A DNA stretch of 64,000 nucleotides from positions 21,028 to 85,027 of the IMG/VR virus record IMGVR_UViG_3300032053_000032; one strand, given 5' to 3'. The notes under the pieces are model-generated. The model did not search any database and was not told the origin of the DNA. It was given only the letters and a program-made list of their open reading frames with translations. The position numbers and the translations under genes are program-made. This stretch comes from a virus. This document shows, one piece after another, positions 5,479-43,116 of this stretch; within the stretch, counting starts at the first letter, position 1, and each line of letters starts with the position of its first letter.

Positions 5479-6702
5479 GTGGCAGACGCACCGTGGGACC
5501 GCACTATCATTCAGGCGCTTGAGCGCCCGATCTGCGACGACATCGATCAGGCGCAGTCGCAGATGGACGGCGCGCTTCGTGAGGTGCTCGACCGGATGCT
5601 CCTCCAAAGGACGTCGATCGCAAACGACGTCGGAGCGTGGAACAACAACGCCGCGGTCTTCTTTGGTGACGGCTTCAAGGTCCGTCCGGTCGCGGCTGCC
5701 CTCCAAGTGTCCGTCACCGCCGGGCTCGGCGTCGTGGTCGACACGACCGACGTCCCGATCGCGATCGGCGCTGGCATTGCTGGTGCCGCGGTTCCTGGCC
5801 TCGACGACCGCTCGCGTCTGAAGCCGCTCCCGCTGGAAGCGAACGCTGTCTTCAACATCCCAGCTCCCCCCGGCGTCGGGCTTCAGCGCTTCGACATCAT
5901 CGAAGTGAAGCAGAGCCGCGTCATTACGAACGCGACCGCGCGCGCCGTCCTGAACACGGGCACAGGTATCTTCGCGCCGAACGTCGTGAACAAGACGCTG
6001 GAGTTCAAGCTCGACGGGCACGTGGGAACCGTCGTATCGCCGGCTGTGTCGGTTCAGTCGCTCGGCTACAAGCAGGGTGCGGCGGCGGCCGTGGCCGTAT
6101 CACCGGCCGTCTCGCCTGGCTACACGATCATCGCGCGCATCCTCGTCATAAACGGCGCTATCAACGTCGATAACGGCGTCATCCAGGACCTCAGGTCGCA
6201 GGCTGCATCTGGTGGGATGAGCCGTGTCGGGCTGCGCTTCACGATGCCGACGACGGGCGCTGCTGTGGTTCCCACGATCACCAACCTGATCGCCCCTGCA
6301 GGGGCGGTCGCGGTGGTGGTAGGGCAGGCGTCCGGCTTTGCCTCGAACGCGACCTCAGCTCAGGCCAACGTCTACATCATAGGCGCCGCCGTGGCGGGAG
6401 CGAACAACGCGATCACCGTGAACAGCGAGCACGTCAACACGCCAAACACCGTGTACGTATCGTCTTTCAACGTCTCTCCGCTCGGTGTTCTTGTACAGGG
6501 AATCACAGCCGCGGAGAAGGCAGAAATTGAGGGAGCCAACGCGAGCCCTGCTGGCCTCAAGGTCGCCGTGGGCCAACCGCGGCTGGCCTTCCGCGTGTTC
6601 TCGAACGCCCTCCTGAACGGTGGGTCCGTGCGCAGCATGGACGGGTCGCTCGGCGACCCGAACCCGATCCCGTACCACGTCCAGATCGTGGGCGAGAGGT
6701 AG
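5479..6702 (+). CDS. Tail fibre/baseplate-attached structural protein
   Basis: Position after the wedge genes; 'LQVSVTAGLG..PAP..RFDII' fibre N-terminal pattern; AGGAG RBS. Confidence 0.6.
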   Translation: MADAPWDRTIIQALERPICDDIDQAQSQMDGALREVLDRMLLQRTSIANDVGAWNNNAAVFFGDGFKVRPVAAALQVSVTAGLGVVVDTTDVPIAIGAGIAGAAVPGLDDRSRLKPLPLEANAVFNIPAPPGVGLQRFDIIEVKQSRVITNATARAVLNTGTGIFAPNVVNKTLEFKLDGHVGTVVSPAVSVQSLGYKQGAAAAVAVSPAVSPGYTIIARILVINGAINVDNGVIQDLRSQAASGGMSRVGLRFTMPTTGAAVVPTITNLIAPAGAVAVVVGQASGFASNATSAQANVYIIGAAVAGANNAITVNSEHVNTPNTVYVSSFNVSPLGVLVQGITAAEKAEIEGANASPAGLKVAVGQPRLAFRVFSNALLNGGSVRSMDGSLGDPNPIPYHVQIVGER

Positions 6703-6705
6703 CCG

Positions 6706-8340
6706 ATGCCGGCAGCAGTCATCAAGATCAACGGCGTCGTCGGCTCCAACGATGACCTTCCGATCAATGTCCTCGTGCTACTGGATAACCAGAATGCTGG
6801 AGGTGAGATCACCTACCTCTGGAGTATCGTCGATCAGCCGCTCGGCGCCGCCGACGCGCTCTCCGCTACGAACATCCAGAACCCGACCTTCACCCCGAAG
6901 AAGGAGGGCACCTACCTCCTCAAGCTGGTGGTGAACCAGGCTCTTGTCTCCGAGGTCACAGACACCAAGATCGTCGGGATCCGCCAGGTCAAGAAGCCCG
7001 CTCTCCGTATTCCAGCTGCTGGGGAGACGCTAGAAGATGGAACGACAGGGTGGGCCCCAGCGGTTGACGCCTTCCTGCGCACGATCGACAGCGTCCAGGC
7101 AGATCCTGGAGTCCTCGTTGGCGTGAACGGCGGCGGAACCGCACTGGCAGCGGGCGTCGTCTACTGCGTCCGCCCGATCGGAATCACGAGCATCAAGCTC
7201 GGGCTCCCTGGCGAGGAGACGTTCGTCCCAACTTTCGCCATCGCTCTCGCGACACTGGCGCAGCAGTTCCTTGAAGGTCCGCTCTATGCCGCGGAAGGTG
7301 GTGTAGACGGCGCTCCGGCCGGCGCTGGCATCCTCATGCGCGTCCGCCGATTTGGGCGCATCGCGTTCCCGATCACGGCCTTGGCTGGAAGCGTGCTCGG
7401 CGACCCCGTGTTCCTACAGGACGACGGGACGATCAAGCCTGGCGTGGTCGGTACCACCTCACGCCGAGTTGGCACGGTGACCCGCGTCATCACGCCAACT
7501 ACCTACGCGGTCGACTTCGATGGATCCACGCTTCCAACGCGCTCGCAGATGGGGCCGCTCAAGTTCAGCGGGTCGTTCCCGACTGCCGATACCAACATCG
7601 GTGGGGACACCTTCCTCGCTGGAAACCTGGAAGTAGGACTGACCCTCGACGTTGCCGGTGCCGCCACGTTCGATGCCGGCCTGGCCGTTGTCGTCGGAGA
7701 CGCCACGTTCATCCAGGGAGCAACGCGCCAGAACGTCACCAAGAGCGGTGGCGGGCTCCTCGGACTGGAGACAGCGACTGCCGATCCGGTCAACATCGGG
7801 ACGAACTCCGTGGACCGCTGGCAGGTGAAGGCAACAGGCGAGCTGGCTAGCGTCGGCGGCAACCGCCAGATCCAGAACGTCCTCGACCCCATCGTAGCCC
7901 AAGATGCCGCAACCAAGAACTACGTCGACACGGTGTCCTCGAAGCTTAGGCAGACGCTAACGACAGAGATCACGGTCGACACGACAACGGCTAGCGCCGT
8001 TTTTGTAGCGTTTCTGTCGCAGGTGATCACGATTGCCGCCGGTTCCAAGGTGATGATCTGGTTCTCGTTTGGAGGATCTAACAGCACAAACAACAACGGT
8101 TTGGCATTTCGGATCCAGATCGATGGCGTGACGAAGCGCGGCACGGCTGCATCTACGATCTCCCCGGCCGGCGCCACCGAATCTGGTGGCATAGTTCAAG
8201 AGATTTCTGGCCTCGCTGTCGGTGTGCGAACTGTTACCGTTCAGTGGCGTGCGACCTCCGGCGGGACTGCTCAGGTTCGTCCAGTTACTGTTCCTGACTT
8301 TGAGCACGCCACCCTCGTCATTGCTGAAGTCACCGCGTAA
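6706..8340 (+). CDS. Tail fibre protein with N-terminal PKD/Ig-like domain
   Basis: 'TYLWSIVDQP..NPTFTP..EGTYLLKLVVN' Ig/PKD pattern; 'DAATKNYVD' fibre motif. Confidence 0.7.
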   Translation: MPAAVIKINGVVGSNDDLPINVLVLLDNQNAGGEITYLWSIVDQPLGAADALSATNIQNPTFTPKKEGTYLLKLVVNQALVSEVTDTKIVGIRQVKKPALRIPAAGETLEDGTTGWAPAVDAFLRTIDSVQADPGVLVGVNGGGTALAAGVVYCVRPIGITSIKLGLPGEETFVPTFAIALATLAQQFLEGPLYAAEGGVDGAPAGAGILMRVRRFGRIAFPITALAGSVLGDPVFLQDDGTIKPGVVGTTSRRVGTVTRVITPTTYAVDFDGSTLPTRSQMGPLKFSGSFPTADTNIGGDTFLAGNLEVGLTLDVAGAATFDAGLAVVVGDATFIQGATRQNVTKSGGGLLGLETATADPVNIGTNSVDRWQVKATGELASVGGNRQIQNVLDPIVAQDAATKNYVDTVSSKLRQTLTTEITVDTTTASAVFVAFLSQVITIAAGSKVMIWFSFGGSNSTNNNGLAFRIQIDGVTKRGTAASTISPAGATESGGIVQEISGLAVGVRTVTVQWRATSGGTAQVRPVTVPDFEHATLVIAEVTA

Positions 8341-15067: not shown

Positions 15068-15451
15068 ATGTCGATCACCGCAGGCGAGATGGCCGAGCTG
15101 TTCGTGGCTGGCGCCGCCGCCGCGGCGGCCTTTATCGGGATCGGGAAGATGATCTTTGGTGGTGAGAGCACCGCGAAAGCTCTTGCCGAACTGAAAACGG
15201 AGCGCACCGTCAAGGACGAGATCGCCAAGAAGGAGGTGCACGACACCATGGCAACTCACGAAAAGTCGGACGAAAAGTTCCACGCCGAGATCAACAAGAA
15301 GCTCGACGTCGTGATGGAGAAGCTCGACATCCTCCTCAACAAGCAGCACGAGGGTGATGTTCGGCTTGCTCGTGTCGAGACGGAGCTGGACATCAGGCGT
15401 CCGACGCCGATCGAGGGCGTTCCGGCTATCCGTGACGGCGGGAAAGGTTAG
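15068..15451 (+). CDS. Single-TM coiled-coil protein (lysis accessory candidate)
   Basis: AAGGAG RBS; N-terminal hydrophobic helix followed by a heptad-rich charged region. Confidence 0.5.
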   Translation: MSITAGEMAELFVAGAAAAAAFIGIGKMIFGGESTAKALAELKTERTVKDEIAKKEVHDTMATHEKSDEKFHAEINKKLDVVMEKLDILLNKQHEGDVRLARVETELDIRRPTPIEGVPAIRDGGKG

Positions 15452-15457
15452 GCTACT

Positions 15458-17146
15458 ATGGCTCGTTGCCGTGTACGTAACATTACAGGACTGCCCATCA
15501 CGCTCCCCTCTCCGTATGGAATGTTGCTACATGCTGGGCAAGCGATCATCATCGCAGATCAGTCTGCGACGGTTATTTCCAAGATCGGTGGTGCGCTCGC
15601 GGTAGCTGGATTACTGGATATCGCAGATGTTGAAAATGGGCAGCTATTCGACGTAGCCTCTATCGGCGTGCTTCAGGGAACGCCTGCGGTTGGCATCCCA
15701 CCGATCGACGTCTTTATCTCGGCTGCGACTGGAAGTGATACCAACCCCGGAACGCAACTGGCTCCATTTGCCACGATCGACCACTTCTACGCGACCTACC
15801 CGTCTATGTTTTTCGGCGGCGGTCAGATCAACTTGTGGATCGCCGACTCAGAAGGCAACTTCTCCAGCTCGCCGGTGTATAGCCAGACCGCAAAACAGCA
15901 GGTTCATATATGCCAGGCCGTCCTAGTCAAGAACATGGGGGCTGGGATATTCGACCCCAGCCCCTCCATCTGCTACCGCGGCCCGCACATGGTCTTGGCG
16001 ACGCTCACCACGGGGTCACCAGCCGGGGCCGTGATCTCGTCCACCTCCATCCCCGCCCTGACAAAGAAGACGCGCGTCACGTTCACCCCGGACCCTGGGT
16101 GGACGGCGAACGAGTTCAAGCCGGCCAGAGACTCGGGCTCGCAAAAGTTCGCCCGGTTTCGCAACGGCACCAACCTCGTCGTTTACGAGGCGCCGATCAG
16201 CTCGAACACCTCCAACACGCTGGACATCGACTTCGACGACCTGAAGGCTGTCCTCGACCCGCTCATCGGTGCTGTATCAACCGAGATCGTTGTTCCAGGT
16301 GCGCTCATTCAGGGAGTCCCGAATGCAGGCAACGTCTGCAATATCATTGGTGACGTCGCTGGTGGGCGCACGTGGCCTGGATTTGCTGGCGTGAGCACTT
16401 TTGAACGCCTTGCATTCAACGTCGGCACCGTCTCTGCCGGGGCTACCTTCGACCGCTGCGTGCTGACAGGTGGAAATCCGCACACCGGAAATCGCGAGAC
16501 GCTGGCGTGCTGGGGCATCGGGGTATCTTTCGTCAACTCGTCTTGTACATTCGGGATGAACTTCCTCGGTAAGACGAGCCTGTACTACGCGATCCCACGC
16601 CCAGACTCCGCGCTGAGCCCCGCTAACCAGCCGACTACCACGGCGCTCGCGATGGAGCTGATTCTCCATAACATGGGGCTCAACATCGGGCTGGACCCGA
16701 ATGGATCTGTCATCGGCGGGCAGTACAAGGCATGGCGCAACATCTCCGTCTACCAGTGGAGCGCAACTAACTTTAACGTCGGAAACACCGATGGTGGGAT
16801 CGTTGTTTCAGGGCCTGGATCTTCGTTTCAGTCACGGCTCACCACAGCGGCGGGTATAAAAGTCGCGATTCAGGGTACGTCGAGTATCGGTGTGTACGGA
16901 CTCTGGGCAAAAGGTGGTGCTCTCATCTCTATCGACAGCCCGAACGCTAACGCTGGTTTGATCACCATCGCTGGGACCAGCGGTGCACTGGCAGTCGATA
17001 CAGGCGCACCTGTCGCTTACGGCGTGGCGGCTGGAAACTTCGAGGAAGTCATTGGCTGGAACGGTAACTTCACTCGAATGTTGGAAGGGACCGCGACACA
17101 TCCTACTGGAACACCATCTCGGATTTCAACGCTCGCTTTGCAATAG
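15458..17146 (+). CDS. Tailspike/receptor-binding-like protein, paralog 2
   Basis: 'DVFISAATGSDTNPGTQLAPFATI' (DUF1565/beta-helix cap-like); paralog of 12701. Confidence 0.65.
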   Translation: MARCRVRNITGLPITLPSPYGMLLHAGQAIIIADQSATVISKIGGALAVAGLLDIADVENGQLFDVASIGVLQGTPAVGIPPIDVFISAATGSDTNPGTQLAPFATIDHFYATYPSMFFGGGQINLWIADSEGNFSSSPVYSQTAKQQVHICQAVLVKNMGAGIFDPSPSICYRGPHMVLATLTTGSPAGAVISSTSIPALTKKTRVTFTPDPGWTANEFKPARDSGSQKFARFRNGTNLVVYEAPISSNTSNTLDIDFDDLKAVLDPLIGAVSTEIVVPGALIQGVPNAGNVCNIIGDVAGGRTWPGFAGVSTFERLAFNVGTVSAGATFDRCVLTGGNPHTGNRETLACWGIGVSFVNSSCTFGMNFLGKTSLYYAIPRPDSALSPANQPTTTALAMELILHNMGLNIGLDPNGSVIGGQYKAWRNISVYQWSATNFNVGNTDGGIVVSGPGSSFQSRLTTAAGIKVAIQGTSSIGVYGLWAKGGALISIDSPNANAGLITIAGTSGALAVDTGAPVAYGVAAGNFEEVIGWNGNFTRMLEGTATHPTGTPSRISTLALQ

Positions 17147-17164
17147 CATGCTACCCTCACGGGC

Positions 17165-17635
17165 ATGGGTATCCTCACCGTGAGCACCGTCTGTGGCACC
17201 ATCCTGGTCATTCTCGGCCTCATCTACAAGTTCCTCGCCCCGCTCGTCAAGAGCCCGGTCATCGCCGGGATCCTGTCACGCGCGAAGGATGAGGTTTTCG
17301 CCGCTGTTCACGAGGTGGATGCTGGGTACGTTGACGCGATCAAGCTCGCTTCCGCCGACGGCACCCTGACTGCGGCCGAGAAGGCTGTTGCAAAGGACAA
17401 GGCCATCGCCATCGCCAAGAGCAACATCGGCATGAAGGGCCTCGCGACGCTGAGCAGGATCGCCGGGATCGAGTCGGTTGAGAAGTGGATCGCCTCGTGG
17501 ATCGAGCGCGGCGTGAGCACAAAGCGCCTCACCGAGCAGCACGCGGACGCAGCAACGCTGGCTGCTTCTGCTGTCGCCGGGGGTGACGCGACCGTCCCTT
17601 TCGTCAAGCCCGCGCCGAACAACTCGCCGCGGTAG
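17165..17635 (+). CDS. Holin-like protein (single N-terminal TM, LL-H-family-like), short zero-frame product
   Basis: TM at about aa 3-25; 'AAVHEV..YVDAIK..EK..A..IERGV' pattern; upstream of the endolysin. Confidence 0.6.
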   Translation: MGILTVSTVCGTILVILGLIYKFLAPLVKSPVIAGILSRAKDEVFAAVHEVDAGYVDAIKLASADGTLTAAEKAVAKDKAIAIAKSNIGMKGLATLSRIAGIESVEKWIASWIERGVSTKRLTEQHADAATLAASAVAGGDATVPFVKPAPNNSPR

Positions 17636-17660
17636 TTGCGGCGCAGTCGGTTGTCGCGGG
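17596..17660 (+). promoter_or_regulatory. Putative -1 programmed ribosomal frameshift signal (slippery heptamer plus stem-loop)
   Basis: In-frame C CCT TTC at 17596-17602; 6-nt spacer; hairpin CCCGCG/CGCGGG enclosing CCGA/TCGG and CGCCGC/GCGGCG. Confidence 0.7.
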
Positions 17661-17892
17661 GCAGCGGCTCGACCACGTCGACTCGCTTCGGGTAGGGGAA
17701 GGCCATCTCGACCTGAGCGCCTTCGCTCACGGGGACGGGATCGGTGGCACCTCGGGCGTCTCGCTCGACTATGAGCACCGCGCGACGGCTGGGCTGTCCA
17801 TGTTCGGCACCGGGTGGGCCGGTGCAAGCTACGGTGCGGGCGGGTTTGCCCCGGCGTACGGCGCGCAGGTCGGTCTTCGTCTCAAATTCTAG
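17602..17892 (+). CDS. -1 frame extension of the holin-like gene: helix plus four amphipathic beta-strands ending LRLKF
   Basis: Frame open 17587-17892 with no ATG until 17800; its TAG overlaps the endolysin RBS; not in the ORF track. Confidence 0.65.
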   Translation, partial: RQARAEQLAAVVAAQSVVAGQRLDHVDSLRVGEGHLDLSAFAHGDGIGGTSGVSLDYEHRATAGLSMFGTGWAGASYGAGGFAPAYGAQVGLRLKF

Positions 17893-17901
17893 GAGGACGT
17901 C

Positions 17902-18780
17902 ATGGGCTTGATGATCGGCGGGCACGAAGAGGAGATCCAGGGCGTCGTCATCAACTCGTGGATCAAGCACCCGGAGCTTCGCCTGGACGGCGGGGACCGA
18001 CGCCCGCGCGACCCAGCGCGAGCCCACGCCTGGCCCGTCCGCAGCATCGTCATCCACACCGTTTACGGCGACGAGCCGATCGTGCTCCTCAAGGGCAAGG
18101 GACCAGACGGTGGCGAGCCCGCCGCGTGGATCAAAGACCAGCGCGGCGACAAGACCCACGCTGGCGAGCACATGCTAGTCGGGTTTGACGGCGCGGTCGC
18201 CTGCACCTGTGACCTCCTAGGCGAGGCGAGCTACCACGCGGAGAGCATCAACGAGCTGTCGATCGGCATCGAGATCTGCACCCAGCGCGCACGGGACGTG
18301 ACAACCGGCCAACCAGTCTTCTACATGTGGCAGGCTTCGCTCGACGCCACCCTGGCAATCTGCGACTACCTGACCGCGCTCCCGCGGGCATCCGCCGGGC
18401 ACGGGCTGATCTCCGTCGCGCGCCAATACCACTCCCCGTTCCGTAACGGGTCACCCGTGCCGAGGTTCGCAGCGGGCGGATCCGACTGGACGGGCATCCT
18501 CGGACACCGCGACCAGACCTCCAAGAGAGGAGCTGGTGACCCCGGCCACCACGTCTTCGACGTGCTAGCTGCGCGCGGCTACGAGGCGTTCGACGTCATG
18601 GATGATGCTGACAAGACGGTGTGGAAGGTCCGCCAGGCGTACCTGAACGGGAAGTACGGCTCCCACCTCACCGTCGACGGCGTGCCGGGACCTGGGACGC
18701 GGGCGGTGCTGGAGCAGGCGGGGTACCGCGGGGGGCTGTGGCAGTTCCCTCCCAGCGCGACCCCGCTCCCAACGGCATGA
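17902..18780 (+). CDS. Endolysin: N-acetylmuramoyl-L-alanine amidase (Amidase_2) with C-terminal PG-binding motif
   Basis: 'IVIHT', 'YHA..IN..SIGIEI', 'ILGHRD..DPG', 'LTVDGVPGPGT'. Confidence 0.9.
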   Translation: MGLMIGGHEEEIQGVVINSWIKHPELRLDGGDRRPRDPARAHAWPVRSIVIHTVYGDEPIVLLKGKGPDGGEPAAWIKDQRGDKTHAGEHMLVGFDGAVACTCDLLGEASYHAESINELSIGIEICTQRARDVTTGQPVFYMWQASLDATLAICDYLTALPRASAGHGLISVARQYHSPFRNGSPVPRFAAGGSDWTGILGHRDQTSKRGAGDPGHHVFDVLAARGYEAFDVMDDADKTVWKVRQAYLNGKYGSHLTVDGVPGPGTRAVLEQAGYRGGLWQFPPSATPLPTA

Positions 18781-19411
18781 TCTCCAGTCTGTAGATCGCG
18801 CGCGCGGCTCCCTTCGTTTCGACCATCTCCTCCGATACCCTTCCCGTCACGATCAGCTCCTGAAGCGCACGCCGTACGGTGCGGTAAGCCATTGAGGTTT
18901 GGGTGCAAAGCTGATCGCTCGTCGCGCTGTCATCTCGCAGAGCTTGGATCACAGCGGTCTGCGACGCGGTTGCTCCATCGAGAAACAGACAGCGATCACA
19001 AGCGCGCGCGTCCTCGTGCTTCTTCTCGCCGCACGGGCAACACCGCAGCTTGCTAAGCCGACTCGTCTCTCGCATCCTGGCGGCCTTTACCGGATCACGC
19101 CGACGCTCTCGCTGTCTTGCGTTGTCCTCTTCACGAAACTTCGGATCTGAACGTCGACGCTTACCAGCCGCGCGCTGAAGCTCCTGCCATCGCTCGCGGT
19201 TCGAGTCGATCCAGCGGCGTCCGTTTGCCTTGTGGCGCTCCTTGTTGGCCTCGTACCAAGCGCGCCCTTGCGCCTTTAGGCAGTCCAAGCAGGTGTGTCG
19301 CAGGCGAATCTTGCCGCGCTGGAAGTATTCCAGGAAGAAATCCGACGTGAACGGCTTGGTTTTCTTGCAGAGGTTGCAGCGGAGTTTCTCGGGAGGAACG
19401 CGCACACGCAC
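18668..19411 (-). CDS. Zinc-finger plus HTH protein (HNH-associated-like N-terminus, no HNH core)
   Basis: CxxC..CxxC twice; C-terminal 'YRTVRRALQEL..GRV' winged helix; 3' end overlaps the endolysin antisense. Confidence 0.55.
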   Translation of the reverse strand: MRVRVPPEKLRCNLCKKTKPFTSDFFLEYFQRGKIRLRHTCLDCLKAQGRAWYEANKERHKANGRRWIDSNRERWQELQRAAGKRRRSDPKFREEDNARQRERRRDPVKAARMRETSRLSKLRCCPCGEKKHEDARACDRCLFLDGATASQTAVIQALRDDSATSDQLCTQTSMAYRTVRRALQELIVTGRVSEEMVETKGAARAIYRLEIMPLGAGSRWEGTATAPRGTPPAPAPPASQVPARRRR

Positions 19412-19416
19412 ACGCG

Positions 19417-20001
19417 CTACTCCGGTTCCTTCGGGCAGAACGTATCGAGGAGCCAGCGGCCCACGAGGTCGAGGACACTGTGGGCGATTGGATACTTTTC
19501 GTCACCCGTGAACCCGGACGGCTCGAACTTCATCGCCTTCCACTTCGAGGCGATAGCATAGCACGGCGTTCCATACTGCCAGGCGACGGAGGCAGCCATC
19601 GCAGCGCCATCGAACGCGCCGGAAGCGAGCGACCCGGACTTGCCGACTCTGATGAAGATCTCCCCTGGGCGCCCGTCTTCGTAAAGCCCGATGGTCACGT
19701 AGATCTTGACCACCCCGCTCGGGTTGTCTTCCGACGGGGCAGCTTGAATCCGAAACGCGCGCGTCGGTCCCTTACGCGTGTCGCTCAGGCGCTGGCGCTG
19801 GACCACGCGCGGGGGTGGATCTGCTGGTGCGCCAGCAGGAAGCGTTGAGGTGAACGCGTTGGGATCGTGCGACACCAACTCCTGCTTGAGGTCAAACGCG
19901 ATCTGCTCGCGTGGGGGCAGCACGAGCACGGTAGGTCCGTGACGACCGCTCTTGGATTCGAGAGGCTTCAGCTTTTGTGGCTTCTTGGGTTTGTTGCTCA
20001 C
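19417..20001 (-). CDS. Stand-alone class II ribonucleotide reductase C-terminal (TSCPD/NrdJb-like) domain
   Basis: 'RQRL..RKG.T..F.I', 'YEDGRPGEIFI..GKSGS', 'QYGTP', 'FEPSG.T', 'SVLD'. Confidence 0.8.
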   Translation of the reverse strand: MSNKPKKPQKLKPLESKSGRHGPTVLVLPPREQIAFDLKQELVSHDPNAFTSTLPAGAPADPPPRVVQRQRLSDTRKGPTRAFRIQAAPSEDNPSGVVKIYVTIGLYEDGRPGEIFIRVGKSGSLASGAFDGAAMAASVAWQYGTPCYAIASKWKAMKFEPSGFTGDEKYPIAHSVLDLVGRWLLDTFCPKEPE

Positions 20002-20441
20002 TTGACCTCGATGATGGACCACCCACCGCCGTCCTTCTTGGCGACGCGGGTGACCTGGAAAAATCGGTACGGGTGCAGCTCGGCAGCGACCTTGATCTTG
20101 ACCCGGCCGGTTGGCTCCATGAAGCCCTTTACCTCGTGGAACTCTATCGAGCCATCGAGAAGAAGCACCCTGAAGTCCGGAACGTAGTACGTCATGTCCG
20201 CCAGGCGCAACTTTTCGGGCTCGAAGTCCCAGCGCACGACGTCCGGCGGGCTGCTATCAGACCACGGTGAGATGCGCCGGAGTTCCAGCACACGCGCGTA
20301 CGCGGCCTCCATCGCGTTCATCGCTCCTGGCTTGCGTCCCTTAGCGTGCCAGCGCCCCCTCACGGTCTTCGCCGTGGTCACGACGACTCCGGGCACCGGG
20401 TTGGGCAGGACGACCTTGGCGGGCTTCCTGGCGCGTGCCAT
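19998..20441 (-). CDS. PD-(D/E)XK nuclease (DUF1064-like)
   Basis: 'YVPDFRV..EFHEVKG'. Confidence 0.75.
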   Translation of the reverse strand: MARARKPAKVVLPNPVPGVVVTTAKTVRGRWHAKGRKPGAMNAMEAAYARVLELRRISPWSDSSPPDVVRWDFEPEKLRLADMTYYVPDFRVLLLDGSIEFHEVKGFMEPTGRVKIKVAAELHPYRFFQVTRVAKKDGGGWSIIEVK

Positions 20442-20888: not shown

Positions 20889-21044
20889 CTACGTGTCGTT
20901 GGGCAACTCAAGTGCGTGAGCAAGTTTGTGCAGAGCGTGGAGCGCGCGCTCCACGAAGGATGCGTTCCTTCGCTTTTCATGCGCCTTTTGCCAGTCCGAG
21001 GTACGCTTCTTGCGCGCTTTGGCGCGCTTCGACCACTTGCTCAT
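20889..21044 (-). CDS. Small basic protein
   Basis: ATGA overlap with the VWA gene stop. Confidence 0.4.
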   Translation of the reverse strand: MSKWSKRAKARKKRTSDWQKAHEKRRNASFVERALHALHKLAHALELPNDT

Positions 21045-40175: not shown

Positions 40176-40408
40176 TCCCGCCATCCGAGATAGTCAACCA
40201 CCCTCAGCACTACGGGGGTGACACCACCTACGAAGCGATCAAGGTGATCGAGGCGTGGGGGCTAGGGTTCTGTCTCGGCAACGTCGTAAAATACATCGCC
40301 CGCGCGGAGCACAAGGGTGCCCCGATCGACGATCTTGAGAAGGCTCGCTGGTATCTCGATCGCGAAATAGCACGACGTCGGCGTGAGAAAGAAGTGCAGC
40401 GTAAGTGA
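40172..40408 (+). CDS. DUF3310 (SaV-like/nucleotide-kinase-like) protein
   Basis: 'VNHPQHY', 'FCLGNVVKYI.RA.HK..DLEKARWYL'. Confidence 0.9.
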   Translation: MIPPSEIVNHPQHYGGDTTYEAIKVIEAWGLGFCLGNVVKYIARAEHKGAPIDDLEKARWYLDREIARRRREKEVQRK

Positions 40409-43116
40409 CAGCTACCCTCCCGCTCTACGCCGCCGCGGTACCGCCACGTCTTCGGGTTGAGACTGAAGAACCCCGTAACGTGGATGCGAACTGCGATCGG
40501 TGTCCGCTGTCCGCTGGCAAGCTCCGCTCTCGATGCATGCCAGCGGATGGCCGAGCGGGCGGGCTCTACGTCATCGGAGACTTCCCGAATCAGAACGATG
40601 TCGCGGCCGGCCGGCCCTTTTCAGGTGGAACCGGCAGGCTCATCCGTCCTGCCGTGACCAAGCTGTGGAAGGGTGACGTCGCCTTCGACTCCGCGCTCAG
40701 ATGCGCCCCAGGCCGTACGGGCATCGAGGAGTCGATGGTGGACGCCTGCCGTGGGTACCTCGCTGGAGTGCTTCGCCAGGTACGCCCGCAGCGCATACTC
40801 GCGCTCGGCGGATGGGCGGCGATGGCGGTCCTTGGTCGATCCCCGGCCCCGTTCTCTACCCGGCGTGCGTTCTCCTGGCTGTTCTCCGACGGGCAAGATC
40901 CGGTGCCCGTGTTCATGATGATGGGGCCTGGGTACGGCACGAGGAACCGCTTCGTTCAGAAGTGGTGGAACGACGACCTCGCGTGGGCGCTCACCGCGGA
41001 GCCACCGTTTCCGCCAGTCTGGCAAGACGGAGAGATCCGTCTCGTAACGACGTTAGCCGAAGCAGAGGAGGCAGTCACCTCGCTACGCGCCGCGCCGTGG
41101 TTCGCGTTCGACGCCGAGACTTCTGGCAGGATGTTCGAGGACGAGTTCACCGTCCTATCTGTCGCTGCTACCACGAAGGGATCCGATGTAGCGTGGTTCT
41201 GGGATGCAGTCGCTCTAGCTGATCCGGCCATCGTCTCGGTGTTCAAGCTCCTGATGGAAGACCACACGGTCAAGAAGGTCGGCCAGAACATCAAGTACGA
41301 CATGCTCGCGCTCCGACGTGGGCTAGGTATCGTGCTCCGCGGCTTTCACGGAGACACACGCTTGTGGCGGAAGCTCGAAGATCCGGACGCTGCCGGCGAC
41401 CTCGCGACCCTGAACGAGCTGGTTGGGATGGGTGGTCACAAGGACGAAGCCGAGGAGTACCTCGCGAAGTCGCGCCGTGCTCTAGCCAAGGCGCACCGTG
41501 GCTACAAGAAGAACCCCGACGAGCTATCGTTACTTGCTGTAGATCTGATCAACCGCGCACAGGTGCCACTCGTCGACTACCGGAACGGGACGACCATCCC
41601 GCGTGAAGGGATCATCGATCCAGCGATAGAGACGGCCGTACGTCTAGGCGCCGACCCGCTCAAGTACATCTACGCCTTGCTCCCGTACGACATCATCGCC
41701 CGCTACAATGCACGCGACTCCATCGCGACGGCACGTCTTGGCGAACTGCTAGAAGACCGCATCTCGAAAGAGCCAGATCTGCAACGCACCTGGGACACGC
41801 TGATCAAGCCGGCCACGGATGCAGTCGCGCTCGTCGAGTACACCGGTATCGCCGTGGACGTCCCTGCCATCGAAGCCTTCCGCGATCACCTCGCGTTGCA
41901 GCTCTTGGACGTCACCTCGCGGCTCGACAAGTACGGCACGTTCAACCCAGCTTCCGTGCCGCAGGTACGCAAGCTGCTGTTCGAGACGCTGCATCTGACG
42001 CCACCTAAGACTACAGATTCTGGGCTGGCCTCGACGGACAACGAGTCCCTGGAGTCGATCCAGCATCAGCATCCAGTAGTCGGCGACCTCATCGCGTACC
42101 GCAAGATCACGAAGCTCAAGGGTACGTACGCGGACGGGATGCTTGAGCACGTCACGTCGGATCACCGGATCCACCCTACGCTGAACCTGGACGGCGCTCG
42201 AAGTGGTCGCCTATCGTGTTCAGATCCAAACCTGCAGAACGTGCCTCGTGGCGAGTCCATCGAGGGTGCGATGGCGCGCAACTGCTTCGTTGCGCCGCTC
42301 GGTTCGACCCTGCTCCAGGCCGACTACAGCCAGCTTGAAATCCGCATCGCTGCCATGCTTTCCGGTGACGAGGTGATGATCGAGATCTTGAGGTCCGGGC
42401 ACGACTTCCATCAGCGCACCGCGGAGTTCATCGCGCCGATCGTGTGGGGCATCAAGGCGCATCAGGTCACGAAGAAGCACCGCTCCGCAGCAAAGGCGTT
42501 CGTCTTCGGCGTCCTCTACGGCATGTCGGACGCCGGTGTGGCTTCTCGCGCGGGCTGCTCTCTGGAAGAGGCCGGGAAGATCCGTGAAGCGATTCTTGGC
42601 CGGTTCCGCAAGCTGGCGAAATACTGCCAGGAGCAGCTCGCCTACGCCCGCAAGCATGGGTTTGCCTGGACGTGGTGGGACGGCCATCAAGCGCGCCGCC
42701 GCCCGCTCTGGCATATCGGCGACTCGGATGCAGATGGTGCTCTCCGGTCGGTAGCTGAACACAGCTCGTGGAACACACCCATCCAGGGAACCGCATCCGA
42801 CTTCTGCCTCGCGTCGCTGATCGCTGTTCAACAGTGGATCGAGGAGGACGTCGTGCCGGCCAAGCTCGTGCTTACCGTTCACGACTCGCTGATGCTTGAG
42901 GTAGTCGACTCGGCGCTACCCGAGGTAGCCTTTCAGCTTCGCCGGATCATGACGAGCTGGAACTCTCTCGGCGTTCCCATCACGGTGGACCTGGAATCAG
43001 GACGCGCGTGGGGCTCGATGCAGCCGTTCGCGACGCCGCCAGGCTGGGATGGCTCAGCTGAAGCACTTCACGCATGGCAGGTCGAGGAGAAGCTGGCGGG
43101 GCATGGAAAGTCCTGA
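40405..43116 (+). CDS. polA: Family A DNA polymerase with N-terminal family-4 UDG-like domain and 3'-5' exonuclease
   Basis: 'CDRCPL..GRPFSG', 'FDAET', 'NIKYD', 'YNARD', 'DYSQLEIR', 'RSAAK..FG.LYG', 'VHDS'. Confidence 0.95.
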   Translation: MTATLPLYAAAVPPRLRVETEEPRNVDANCDRCPLSAGKLRSRCMPADGRAGGLYVIGDFPNQNDVAAGRPFSGGTGRLIRPAVTKLWKGDVAFDSALRCAPGRTGIEESMVDACRGYLAGVLRQVRPQRILALGGWAAMAVLGRSPAPFSTRRAFSWLFSDGQDPVPVFMMMGPGYGTRNRFVQKWWNDDLAWALTAEPPFPPVWQDGEIRLVTTLAEAEEAVTSLRAAPWFAFDAETSGRMFEDEFTVLSVAATTKGSDVAWFWDAVALADPAIVSVFKLLMEDHTVKKVGQNIKYDMLALRRGLGIVLRGFHGDTRLWRKLEDPDAAGDLATLNELVGMGGHKDEAEEYLAKSRRALAKAHRGYKKNPDELSLLAVDLINRAQVPLVDYRNGTTIPREGIIDPAIETAVRLGADPLKYIYALLPYDIIARYNARDSIATARLGELLEDRISKEPDLQRTWDTLIKPATDAVALVEYTGIAVDVPAIEAFRDHLALQLLDVTSRLDKYGTFNPASVPQVRKLLFETLHLTPPKTTDSGLASTDNESLESIQHQHPVVGDLIAYRKITKLKGTYADGMLEHVTSDHRIHPTLNLDGARSGRLSCSDPNLQNVPRGESIEGAMARNCFVAPLGSTLLQADYSQLEIRIAAMLSGDEVMIEILRSGHDFHQRTAEFIAPIVWGIKAHQVTKKHRSAAKAFVFGVLYGMSDAGVASRAGCSLEEAGKIREAILGRFRKLAKYCQEQLAYARKHGFAWTWWDGHQARRRPLWHIGDSDADGALRSVAEHSSWNTPIQGTASDFCLASLIAVQQWIEEDVVPAKLVLTVHDSLMLEVVDSALPEVAFQLRRIMTSWNSLGVPITVDLESGRAWGSMQPFATPPGWDGSAEALHAWQVEEKLAGHGKS

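Follow-up and report, generated by a model that had tools for sequence, protein, structure and literature searches.

The DNA analyzed here, a stretch of 64,000 nucleotides (nt) called the window below, covers positions 21,028 to 85,027 of an 85,027-bp IMG/VR virus record, IMGVR_UViG_3300032053_000032. The record represents an uncultured sediment phage; it has direct terminal repeats, a completeness of 100% and a G+C content (GC) of about 63%, and its genes include the phage's own family A DNA polymerase, helicases, terminase and portal. The subject of this work is the region that closes the plus-strand late operon and, within it, a reading frame without a start codon that follows a holin-like gene and may be reached by ribosomal frameshifting. 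A gene for a tail protein (15458-17146) is followed by the holin-like gene, a "gap" of 266 nt and the gene for an endolysin of the Amidase_2 type, after which the genes change strand (Table 1).

The product of the holin-like gene (P0002) is modeled by AlphaFold2 as an N-terminal transmembrane (TM) helix (residues 4-28), a domain of three helices (31-62, 70-100 and 102-138) and a disordered, Pro-rich tail (139-156) of low model confidence. Its homologues include P0003 and P0004, at 56-60% identity, and P0005, at 41-45%. No holin model matches P0002 itself at E <= 0.01; five of the seven family members match phrog_13712, a "holin" group (best E 6.6e-13). Single-TM holins of the LL-H type (PHROG 13712 and 36209, both "holin") likewise consist of a short N-terminal TM helix and a helical domain and are encoded next to an endolysin, and they are found among weak fold matches.

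Table 1. Positions of the features discussed, in window coordinates
Feature	Position	Strand	Remarks
Holin-like gene	17165-17635	+	156 amino acids (aa); zero-frame stop TAG 17633-35; open reading frame and translation, homologues P0003-P0005 and L002-L004
TGA closing the -1 frame upstream	17584-17586	+	opening of the -1 frame, 9 nt ahead of the slip site
Slippery heptamer C_CCT_TTC	17596-17602	+	holin frame, Pro145 CCT, Phe146 TTC
Spacer GTCAAG, 6 nt	17603-17608	+	
GC-rich stem-loop, ~-30 kcal/mol	17609-17660	+	holin stop UAG within the apical loop
-1-frame extension, 96 codons + TAG	17602-17892	+	linker RQARAEQ, helix, four beta-strands ending LRLKF
Region homologous to small-protein family	17623-17889	+	profile match from 17629
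GTAG overlap: -1-frame codon GTA / holin stop TAG	17632-17635	+	GTA not a start codon
Extension stop TAG overlapping endolysin Shine-Dalgarno AGGAGG	17890-17896	+	
Endolysin, Amidase_2 type	17902-18780	+	ATG at 17902; without signal peptide; in the frame of the extension

An earlier note, made from the letters of the window alone, had described the gap as an open -1 frame that has no usable start and whose TAG overlaps the Shine-Dalgarno sequence of the endolysin gene, and a check of the sequence bears this out. The frame is open from 17587, directly after a TGA, to the TAG that ends at 17892, and it shares 16 codons with the end of the holin-like gene. It contains no ATG, GTG or TTG before 17800, and no near-cognate codon (NTG, ATN, ACG, AAG or AGG) before a CTG at 17713, which itself lies inside the first beta-strand of the encoded module. 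A codon from which translation of the module could begin is lacking in this phage.

A length of 101 codons is reached by 11% of the stop-to-stop frames in this DNA, so openness alone is not significant; because open frames this long are common here, the case for a real frame rests on homology. A family profile (38 members) matches window positions 17629-17889 with E 5e-31, the only copy in the genome, and the best phmmer match of the extension has an E of 1.3e-14. The residues in the conserved columns of the family (Asp42, Asp61, Tyr62, His64, Arg65, Ser71, Phe73, Gly79, Gly96 and Arg98) are kept in the extension. The GC by codon position between 17636 and 17892 is 0.74/0.53/0.79, a pattern like that of the holin-like and endolysin genes. 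Judged by its homology, the extension encodes a genuine member of an unnamed family of phage proteins.

Several other readings of these nucleotides were considered and rejected. A chance open reading frame (ORF) is ruled out by the homology. An ORF on the minus strand (17308-18171) is a shadow frame over two real genes, and an ORF in the third frame that begins at a GTG at 17583 has the lowest third-position GC of the three frames and would need a +1 shift to reach the module. A start at the ATG at 17800 would leave the last two strands only. Readthrough of the extension TAG into the endolysin would be possible as far as the frames are concerned, but the endolysin has its own perfect Shine-Dalgarno sequence and ATG.

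Since the record comes from a metagenome assembly and the two frames differ by exactly one base, an assembly or sequencing indel must also be weighed: the true genome would have one extra base between 17587 and 17635, and the gene would encode a plain protein of 242 aa. Logan contigs from three sequencing runs (X1, which may be the source, X2 and X3) match 17563-17788 without a single difference or gap, and a fourth run (X4) covers 17644-17961; the junction is free of gaps in contigs that come from other samples (X2 records 11 and 14; X3 record 20). In addition, the zero-frame tail of the holin-like protein, ...PAPNNSPR-stop, is paralleled by ...PAPAGSSAR-stop and ...SSQR-stop in P0003 and P0004, which argues that the holin stop is real. 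An indel is very unlikely.

Candidate slip site and hairpin at the end of the holin-like gene

The overlap of the two frames holds the heptamer C_CCT_TTC, positioned in the zero frame so that Pro145 and Phe146 of the holin-like protein are decoded on it. It is the sole in-frame C_CCT of the gene, and the zero-frame stop follows 11 codons later. In E. coli, C_CCU_UUC is named as a high-level frameshift motif (PMC4066793), and motifs of the form H_HH.U_UU.Y are among the most efficient ones in that bacterium (PMC4066793). Efficient heptamers are found in frame only 7 times in the 13,314 codons of the 42 well-behaved genes of the window that served as background, which gives an expectation of 0.008 for the 16-codon overlap. 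By translation, a ribosome that slips back one base here would make 146 + 96 = 242 aa, as the earlier note had calculated, as compared to 156 aa without the slip. In the model of the holin-like protein, the slip site maps to the tail of low confidence, so a fusion made at this point would not break a folded domain.

A hairpin of 52 nt, which had also been noted before, is confirmed downstream of a 6-nt spacer, with a minimum free energy of about -30 kcal/mol. Among real 63-nt windows of the genome it ranks in the best 0.8-1.7%, and in the best 7.4% when the comparison is made with windows that are equally GC-rich. Two other roles for these elements were examined and discarded: transcriptional slippage, there being no long run of A or T, and an intrinsic terminator at the hairpin, which has no U tract and for which the terminator scan found nothing.

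From the missing start, the heptamer and the hairpin, we infer that programmed -1 ribosomal frameshifting is the most likely source of the module in this phage, with a probability of roughly 0.6. Ribosomes would decode Pro145-Phe146 of the holin-like mRNA on C_CCU_UUC, the hairpin 6 nt downstream would make them pause, and a fraction would slip back by one base and read 96 further codons in the -1 frame. The outcome would be a major holin-like protein of 156 aa together with a minor fusion of 242 aa, at a ratio set by the efficiency of the slip. The fusion would consist of the TM helix, the three-helix domain, a short linker, a further helix and a four-stranded beta module.

This arrangement resembles the frameshift cassettes of lambda G/GT, dnaX and IS3/IS911 in having a zero-frame X_XXY_YYZ heptamer, a short spacer, a downstream stem-loop and a zero-frame stop soon afterward, and also in the long and short products at a fixed ratio, which are here predicted. 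Unlike those cases, the gene is a holin-like lysis gene rather than a tail chaperone, replication gene or transposase, and the part that would be added is a module listed elsewhere in the databases as a separate gene. Two products from one gene also recall the holin/antiholin pair of lambda, S105/S107; the second product would here come from frameshifting at the 3' end of the gene, not from dual starts.

Related loci and other routes to the module

The DNA of the junction can be compared at three module loci: that of the window and those of two further phages, the IMG/VR contigs L003 and L004. In all three genomes the module lies directly 3' of a homologous, single-TM, LL-H-like holin gene and in its -1 frame. 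Identity to P0002 is 48% for the holin-like gene of L003 and 39% for that of L004; the module of L004 shares 39% identity with that of the window. Each of the two holin-like genes has a single in-frame C_CCT, located 6-9 codons before the stop, against a background rate for in-frame C_CCT of 0.0015-0.0026 per codon. Hairpins of -38.9 and -46.7 kcal/mol, respectively, follow these sites within 3-10 nt, and no background window of the two loci equals them.

A natural negative control is provided by L002, a Hydrogenedentes metagenome-assembled genome, in which a homologue of the holin-like gene (5881-6249; 42% identity) stands directly after a tail-like gene. At this locus there is no module gene and no in-frame C_CCT, and a terminator-like hairpin follows the stop. 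The sites and hairpins of L003 and L004, together with the contrast provided by L002, suggest that slippage into the frame of the module may be shared by the family.

Several observations weigh against programmed frameshifting, either in the window phage or in its relatives. Compared with dinucleotide shuffles of its own sequence, the window hairpin has a z-score of just -0.7 to -1.8. The full heptamer is present in the window phage only; what L003 and L004 retain of the proposed cassette is the hairpins and the weaker tetramer C_CCU. The databases list the homologues of the module as separate genes, and in-frame fused homologues, which the earlier note had proposed to look for, are absent among the 47 representatives retrieved from 1.8 billion, the longest of which has 115 aa. 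In L003 and L004 the first in-frame start of the module is a GTG that overlaps the holin TGA (GTGA) and is not preceded by a Shine-Dalgarno sequence; independent, coupled initiation at this GTG is possible. The hairpins of L003 and L004 contain the GTGA overlap and could equally serve stop/start coupling. In these relatives the synthesis of the module would be tied to that of the holin by such coupling, by the same slip or by both. An own start in the homologues, which according to the earlier note would speak against its proposal, is thus found, both as the GTG of L003 and L004 and in the separate genes of 46-115 aa; the signal peptide that was to accompany it is found in none of them.

The starts assigned by gene callers are weak evidence either way, because a TGA preceded by G, A or T yields a "start" in the -1 frame for free. 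Such free starts may explain the many database members that begin with MT... or MR..., and also why others are called from inside the conserved domain. For the three closest homologues, Met1 aligns with a CTC of the window (17623), 15 residues before the LDHVD motif.

This alignment is one of the points that favor a relic. In that case, the module gene would have recently lost its start, for example by a change of GTG to GTA at 17632-34, and would not be expressed, with the heptamer and the hairpin being fortuitous. The GTAG of the window (17632-35) has exactly the overlap geometry of the GTGA in L003 and L004, and open frames of this length are, as described above, common in this GC-rich DNA. 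However, the residues conserved in the family and the coding periodicity of GC are all intact, and the identical sequence persists across several sediment samples. Chance would have to supply both an efficient heptamer, of which 0.008 are expected, and, at the correct distance from it, a hairpin that ranks in the top 1-7%, and the C_CCT and hairpin of both relatives would be left unexplained. A relic is unlikely.

The same overlap geometry would also fit an unconventional reinitiation, in which ribosomes, having terminated at the holin UAG, resume translation on the GUA that overlaps it or on the next GUU; the product would be a free protein of about 86 aa. Such a start would leave 11-12 residues before LDHVD, as is the case for P0011, P0017, P0022 and P0037. 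Furthermore, the GTG of L003 and L004 is also without a Shine-Dalgarno sequence, so that coupling would be the mode of initiation there. Yet GUA and GUU each have two mismatches to AUG, we know of no natural gene that uses either of them as a start, and the heptamer would have no explanation. Reinitiation of this kind appears improbable.

A far-reaching version of the frameshift reading holds that slippage at a C_CCU site in the holin tail is the normal route for the whole beta-module family, that the "separate genes" are gene-caller artefacts arising wherever G or A stands before a TGA, and that the fusion puts a beta anchor of the outer-membrane type on an inner-membrane protein; this is conceivable, though on the unlikely side.

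The hexamer GTGACG, which forms the overlap of the holin stop and module start in L003 (5983-5988) and L004 (5962-5967), recurs in the window at 17583-17588, 8 nt ahead of the heptamer. At this site the TGA of the hexamer is what closes the -1 frame, and the GTG belongs to the third frame; the recurrence could be a coincidence or the trace of a rearranged junction.

Some further genes may be mentioned briefly. In L004, a viral contig of 45.9 kb, a gene of the low-affinity iron permease family (PF04120, E 3e-39; 6720-7031) lies about 500 nt downstream of the module gene. In the window, two genes on the minus strand, one for a TSCPD-domain protein (19417-20022) and one for an HNH/endonuclease VII-like protein with a winged-helix region (18668-19411), converge on the end of the endolysin gene; the latter, as listed, overlaps its 3' end by about 110 nt. 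At 40405-43116, a protein of 903 aa is encoded in which a uracil-DNA-glycosylase-superfamily domain is joined in one chain to a 3'-5' exonuclease and a family A DNA polymerase.

Predicted fold and family of the beta module

A phmmer search against 1.8 billion representatives retrieved 47 relatives of the extension, all of 46-115 aa, with each match spanning nearly the whole of the subject protein. A profile search added further relatives, including P0057 at 57% identity. No Pfam model matches any member of the family, and no PHROG matches the extension of the window (P0001). Neither the module nor the family members have a signal peptide or hydrophobic leader; the members start 0-25 residues before the helix.

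Several other searches added nothing. Among cultured phages, there was no match by blastn with 15400-19000 or by tblastn with P0001 and P0015. Scans of IMG/VR with P0001, A1, P0006, P0009, P0037 and A5 gave no match, and a scan with A7 found again only the contig of L003. Metagenome scans with A1 and P0009 and a word-index protein search with P0001 likewise gave none. No module was found in 135 Hydrogenedentota genomes, an empty result that shows nothing.

With the family alignment, AlphaFold2 models the module at a mean confidence score (pLDDT) of 96.5 as a helix (residues 3-32) followed by four strands (39-49, 54-65, 70-83 and 86-99), so that the helix and the four amphipathic strands with a terminal Phe that had been read from the sequence are recovered in the model. 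The chain ends in Phe or Trp in 35 of the 38 members. Strand 4 has the pattern G-hydrophobic-x-hydrophobic-x-aromatic, and the family C-terminus reads G-L-R-x-R-F/W. Placed at the exact end of the chain and combined with long amphipathic strands, this C-terminus looks like an outer-membrane beta-signal.

Comparisons with known folds gave matches that are all middling: the gasdermin-type pores RCD-1 (Z 7.2) and gasdermin B (Z 6.6), the complement membrane attack complex (MAC; Z 6.6) and CdiB (Z 6.2), followed by the trimeric anchors Hia (Z 5.7, with a root-mean-square deviation of 2.7 A over 59 residues), AtaA (Z 5.4) and YadA (Z 5.0), the Foldseek E values for the anchors being 0.04-0.2. Their common theme is the membrane beta-sheet. 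The module shares with the anchors of YadA, Hia and AtaA a length of about 70-100 residues, one helix with four long strands, an aromatic residue at the C-terminus and small residues on one face of the sheet. It differs from them in having no sequence match, signal peptide or passenger domain, and the hairpins of gasdermin and MAC score equally well or better. The YadA_anchor model (PF03895) does not match any of the 38 members at E <= 1 or any of the six frames of the genome at E <= 10, and no solved anchor is found among the PDB profile matches at E <= 10. Of the earlier proposal of a YadA-type anchor, the layout is therefore retained, by the model, and membership in the anchor family is not supported.

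Topology and the place of the module in phage lysis

In 7 of the 7 holin-like homologues, the Lys and Arg residues come after the TM helix; in P0005, a signal-like segment is present in addition at the N-terminus. By the positive-inside rule, this predicts an N-out/C-in topology with the C-terminus in the cytoplasm, and a caution to this effect in the earlier note holds for the family. Given such a topology, the beta part would be made in the cytoplasm, and the module, whether free or fused, is predicted to start there. Its site of action may be the cytoplasm, where it would be a regulator or form a lesion of the beta type; alternatively, it may gain access to the envelope only once the holin has opened the membrane. 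Tentatively, the module may be a membrane-active or oligomerising partner of the holin that takes part in the disruption of the envelope or in its timing, a role that is possible rather than probable.

The earlier note had gone further and suggested a one-chain, lipoprotein-independent spanin, in which the TM helix would sit in the inner membrane and a trimeric, YadA-like barrel of 12 strands in the outer membrane; this design presupposes the frameshift. Its appeal comes from the confidently modeled helix and four strands, the presence of the Hia, AtaA and YadA anchors among the fold matches, the terminal Phe or Trp and the beta-signal-like pattern of strand 4. Moreover, about 15% of phages are without spanins (10.1101/515445), and a search of the 85-kb genome with a crude regular expression revealed no convincing lipobox or spanin ORF, in keeping with the earlier statement that no Rz/Rz1 pair is recognizable; no lipobox Cys is present in the module or in the holin-like protein. 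Against this, the family has no signal peptide and, because the C-terminus is predicted to be cytoplasmic, the model that runs from the inner to the outer membrane is left without an export route. In addition, the YadA_anchor model is unmatched, and the middling fold scores suit the pore hairpins of gasdermin and MAC equally well. As a spanin of this design, the fusion is doubtful, and that part of the earlier proposal is not upheld.

Lambda Rz/Rz1, the one-chain spanin T1 gp11 and the phiKT disruptin gp28 resemble the module in their position in the lysis cassette, beside the holin and the endolysin. What sets the module apart from them is that it has no lipobox, C-terminal TM helix, periplasmic coiled coil or cationic amphipathic peptide; the membrane anchor of the fusion would be N-terminal and the C-terminus is predicted to be cytoplasmic.

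In both L003 (5147-5560) and L004 (5035-5481), the holin-like gene is directly preceded by a gene for a protein of 137-148 aa in which coiled-coil-like segments lie on either side of a central TM helix. The protein matches no Pfam family and has no counterpart in the window, and it may be another membrane component of the lysis cassette.

Phage lysis employs holins and endolysins and, in hosts with two membranes, spanins or a disruptin. For about 15% of the phages of such hosts, no outer-membrane step is known (10.1101/515445). A literature search revealed no paper on a programmed frameshift in a holin gene or on the module, and, as judged from the sequence, the locus would represent an undescribed lysis-protein design. 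It adds an unnamed, confidently folding module of one helix and four strands with a C-terminus of the outer-membrane type, which in several uncultured phages is genetically locked to a gene of the holin-like kind. The whole construct of holin and module is small, with 728 nt, and it offers a natural case in which a textbook -1 slip cassette is the only access to a start-less module. Should the slip prove real, it would be, as far as known, the first programmed frameshift reported in a holin gene and a new way of holding two lysis products at a set ratio. If the family-wide reading were true as well, these phages would have a new, lipoprotein-free way to breach or bridge the outer membrane, or a beta-barrel lesion that is made from the cytoplasmic side.

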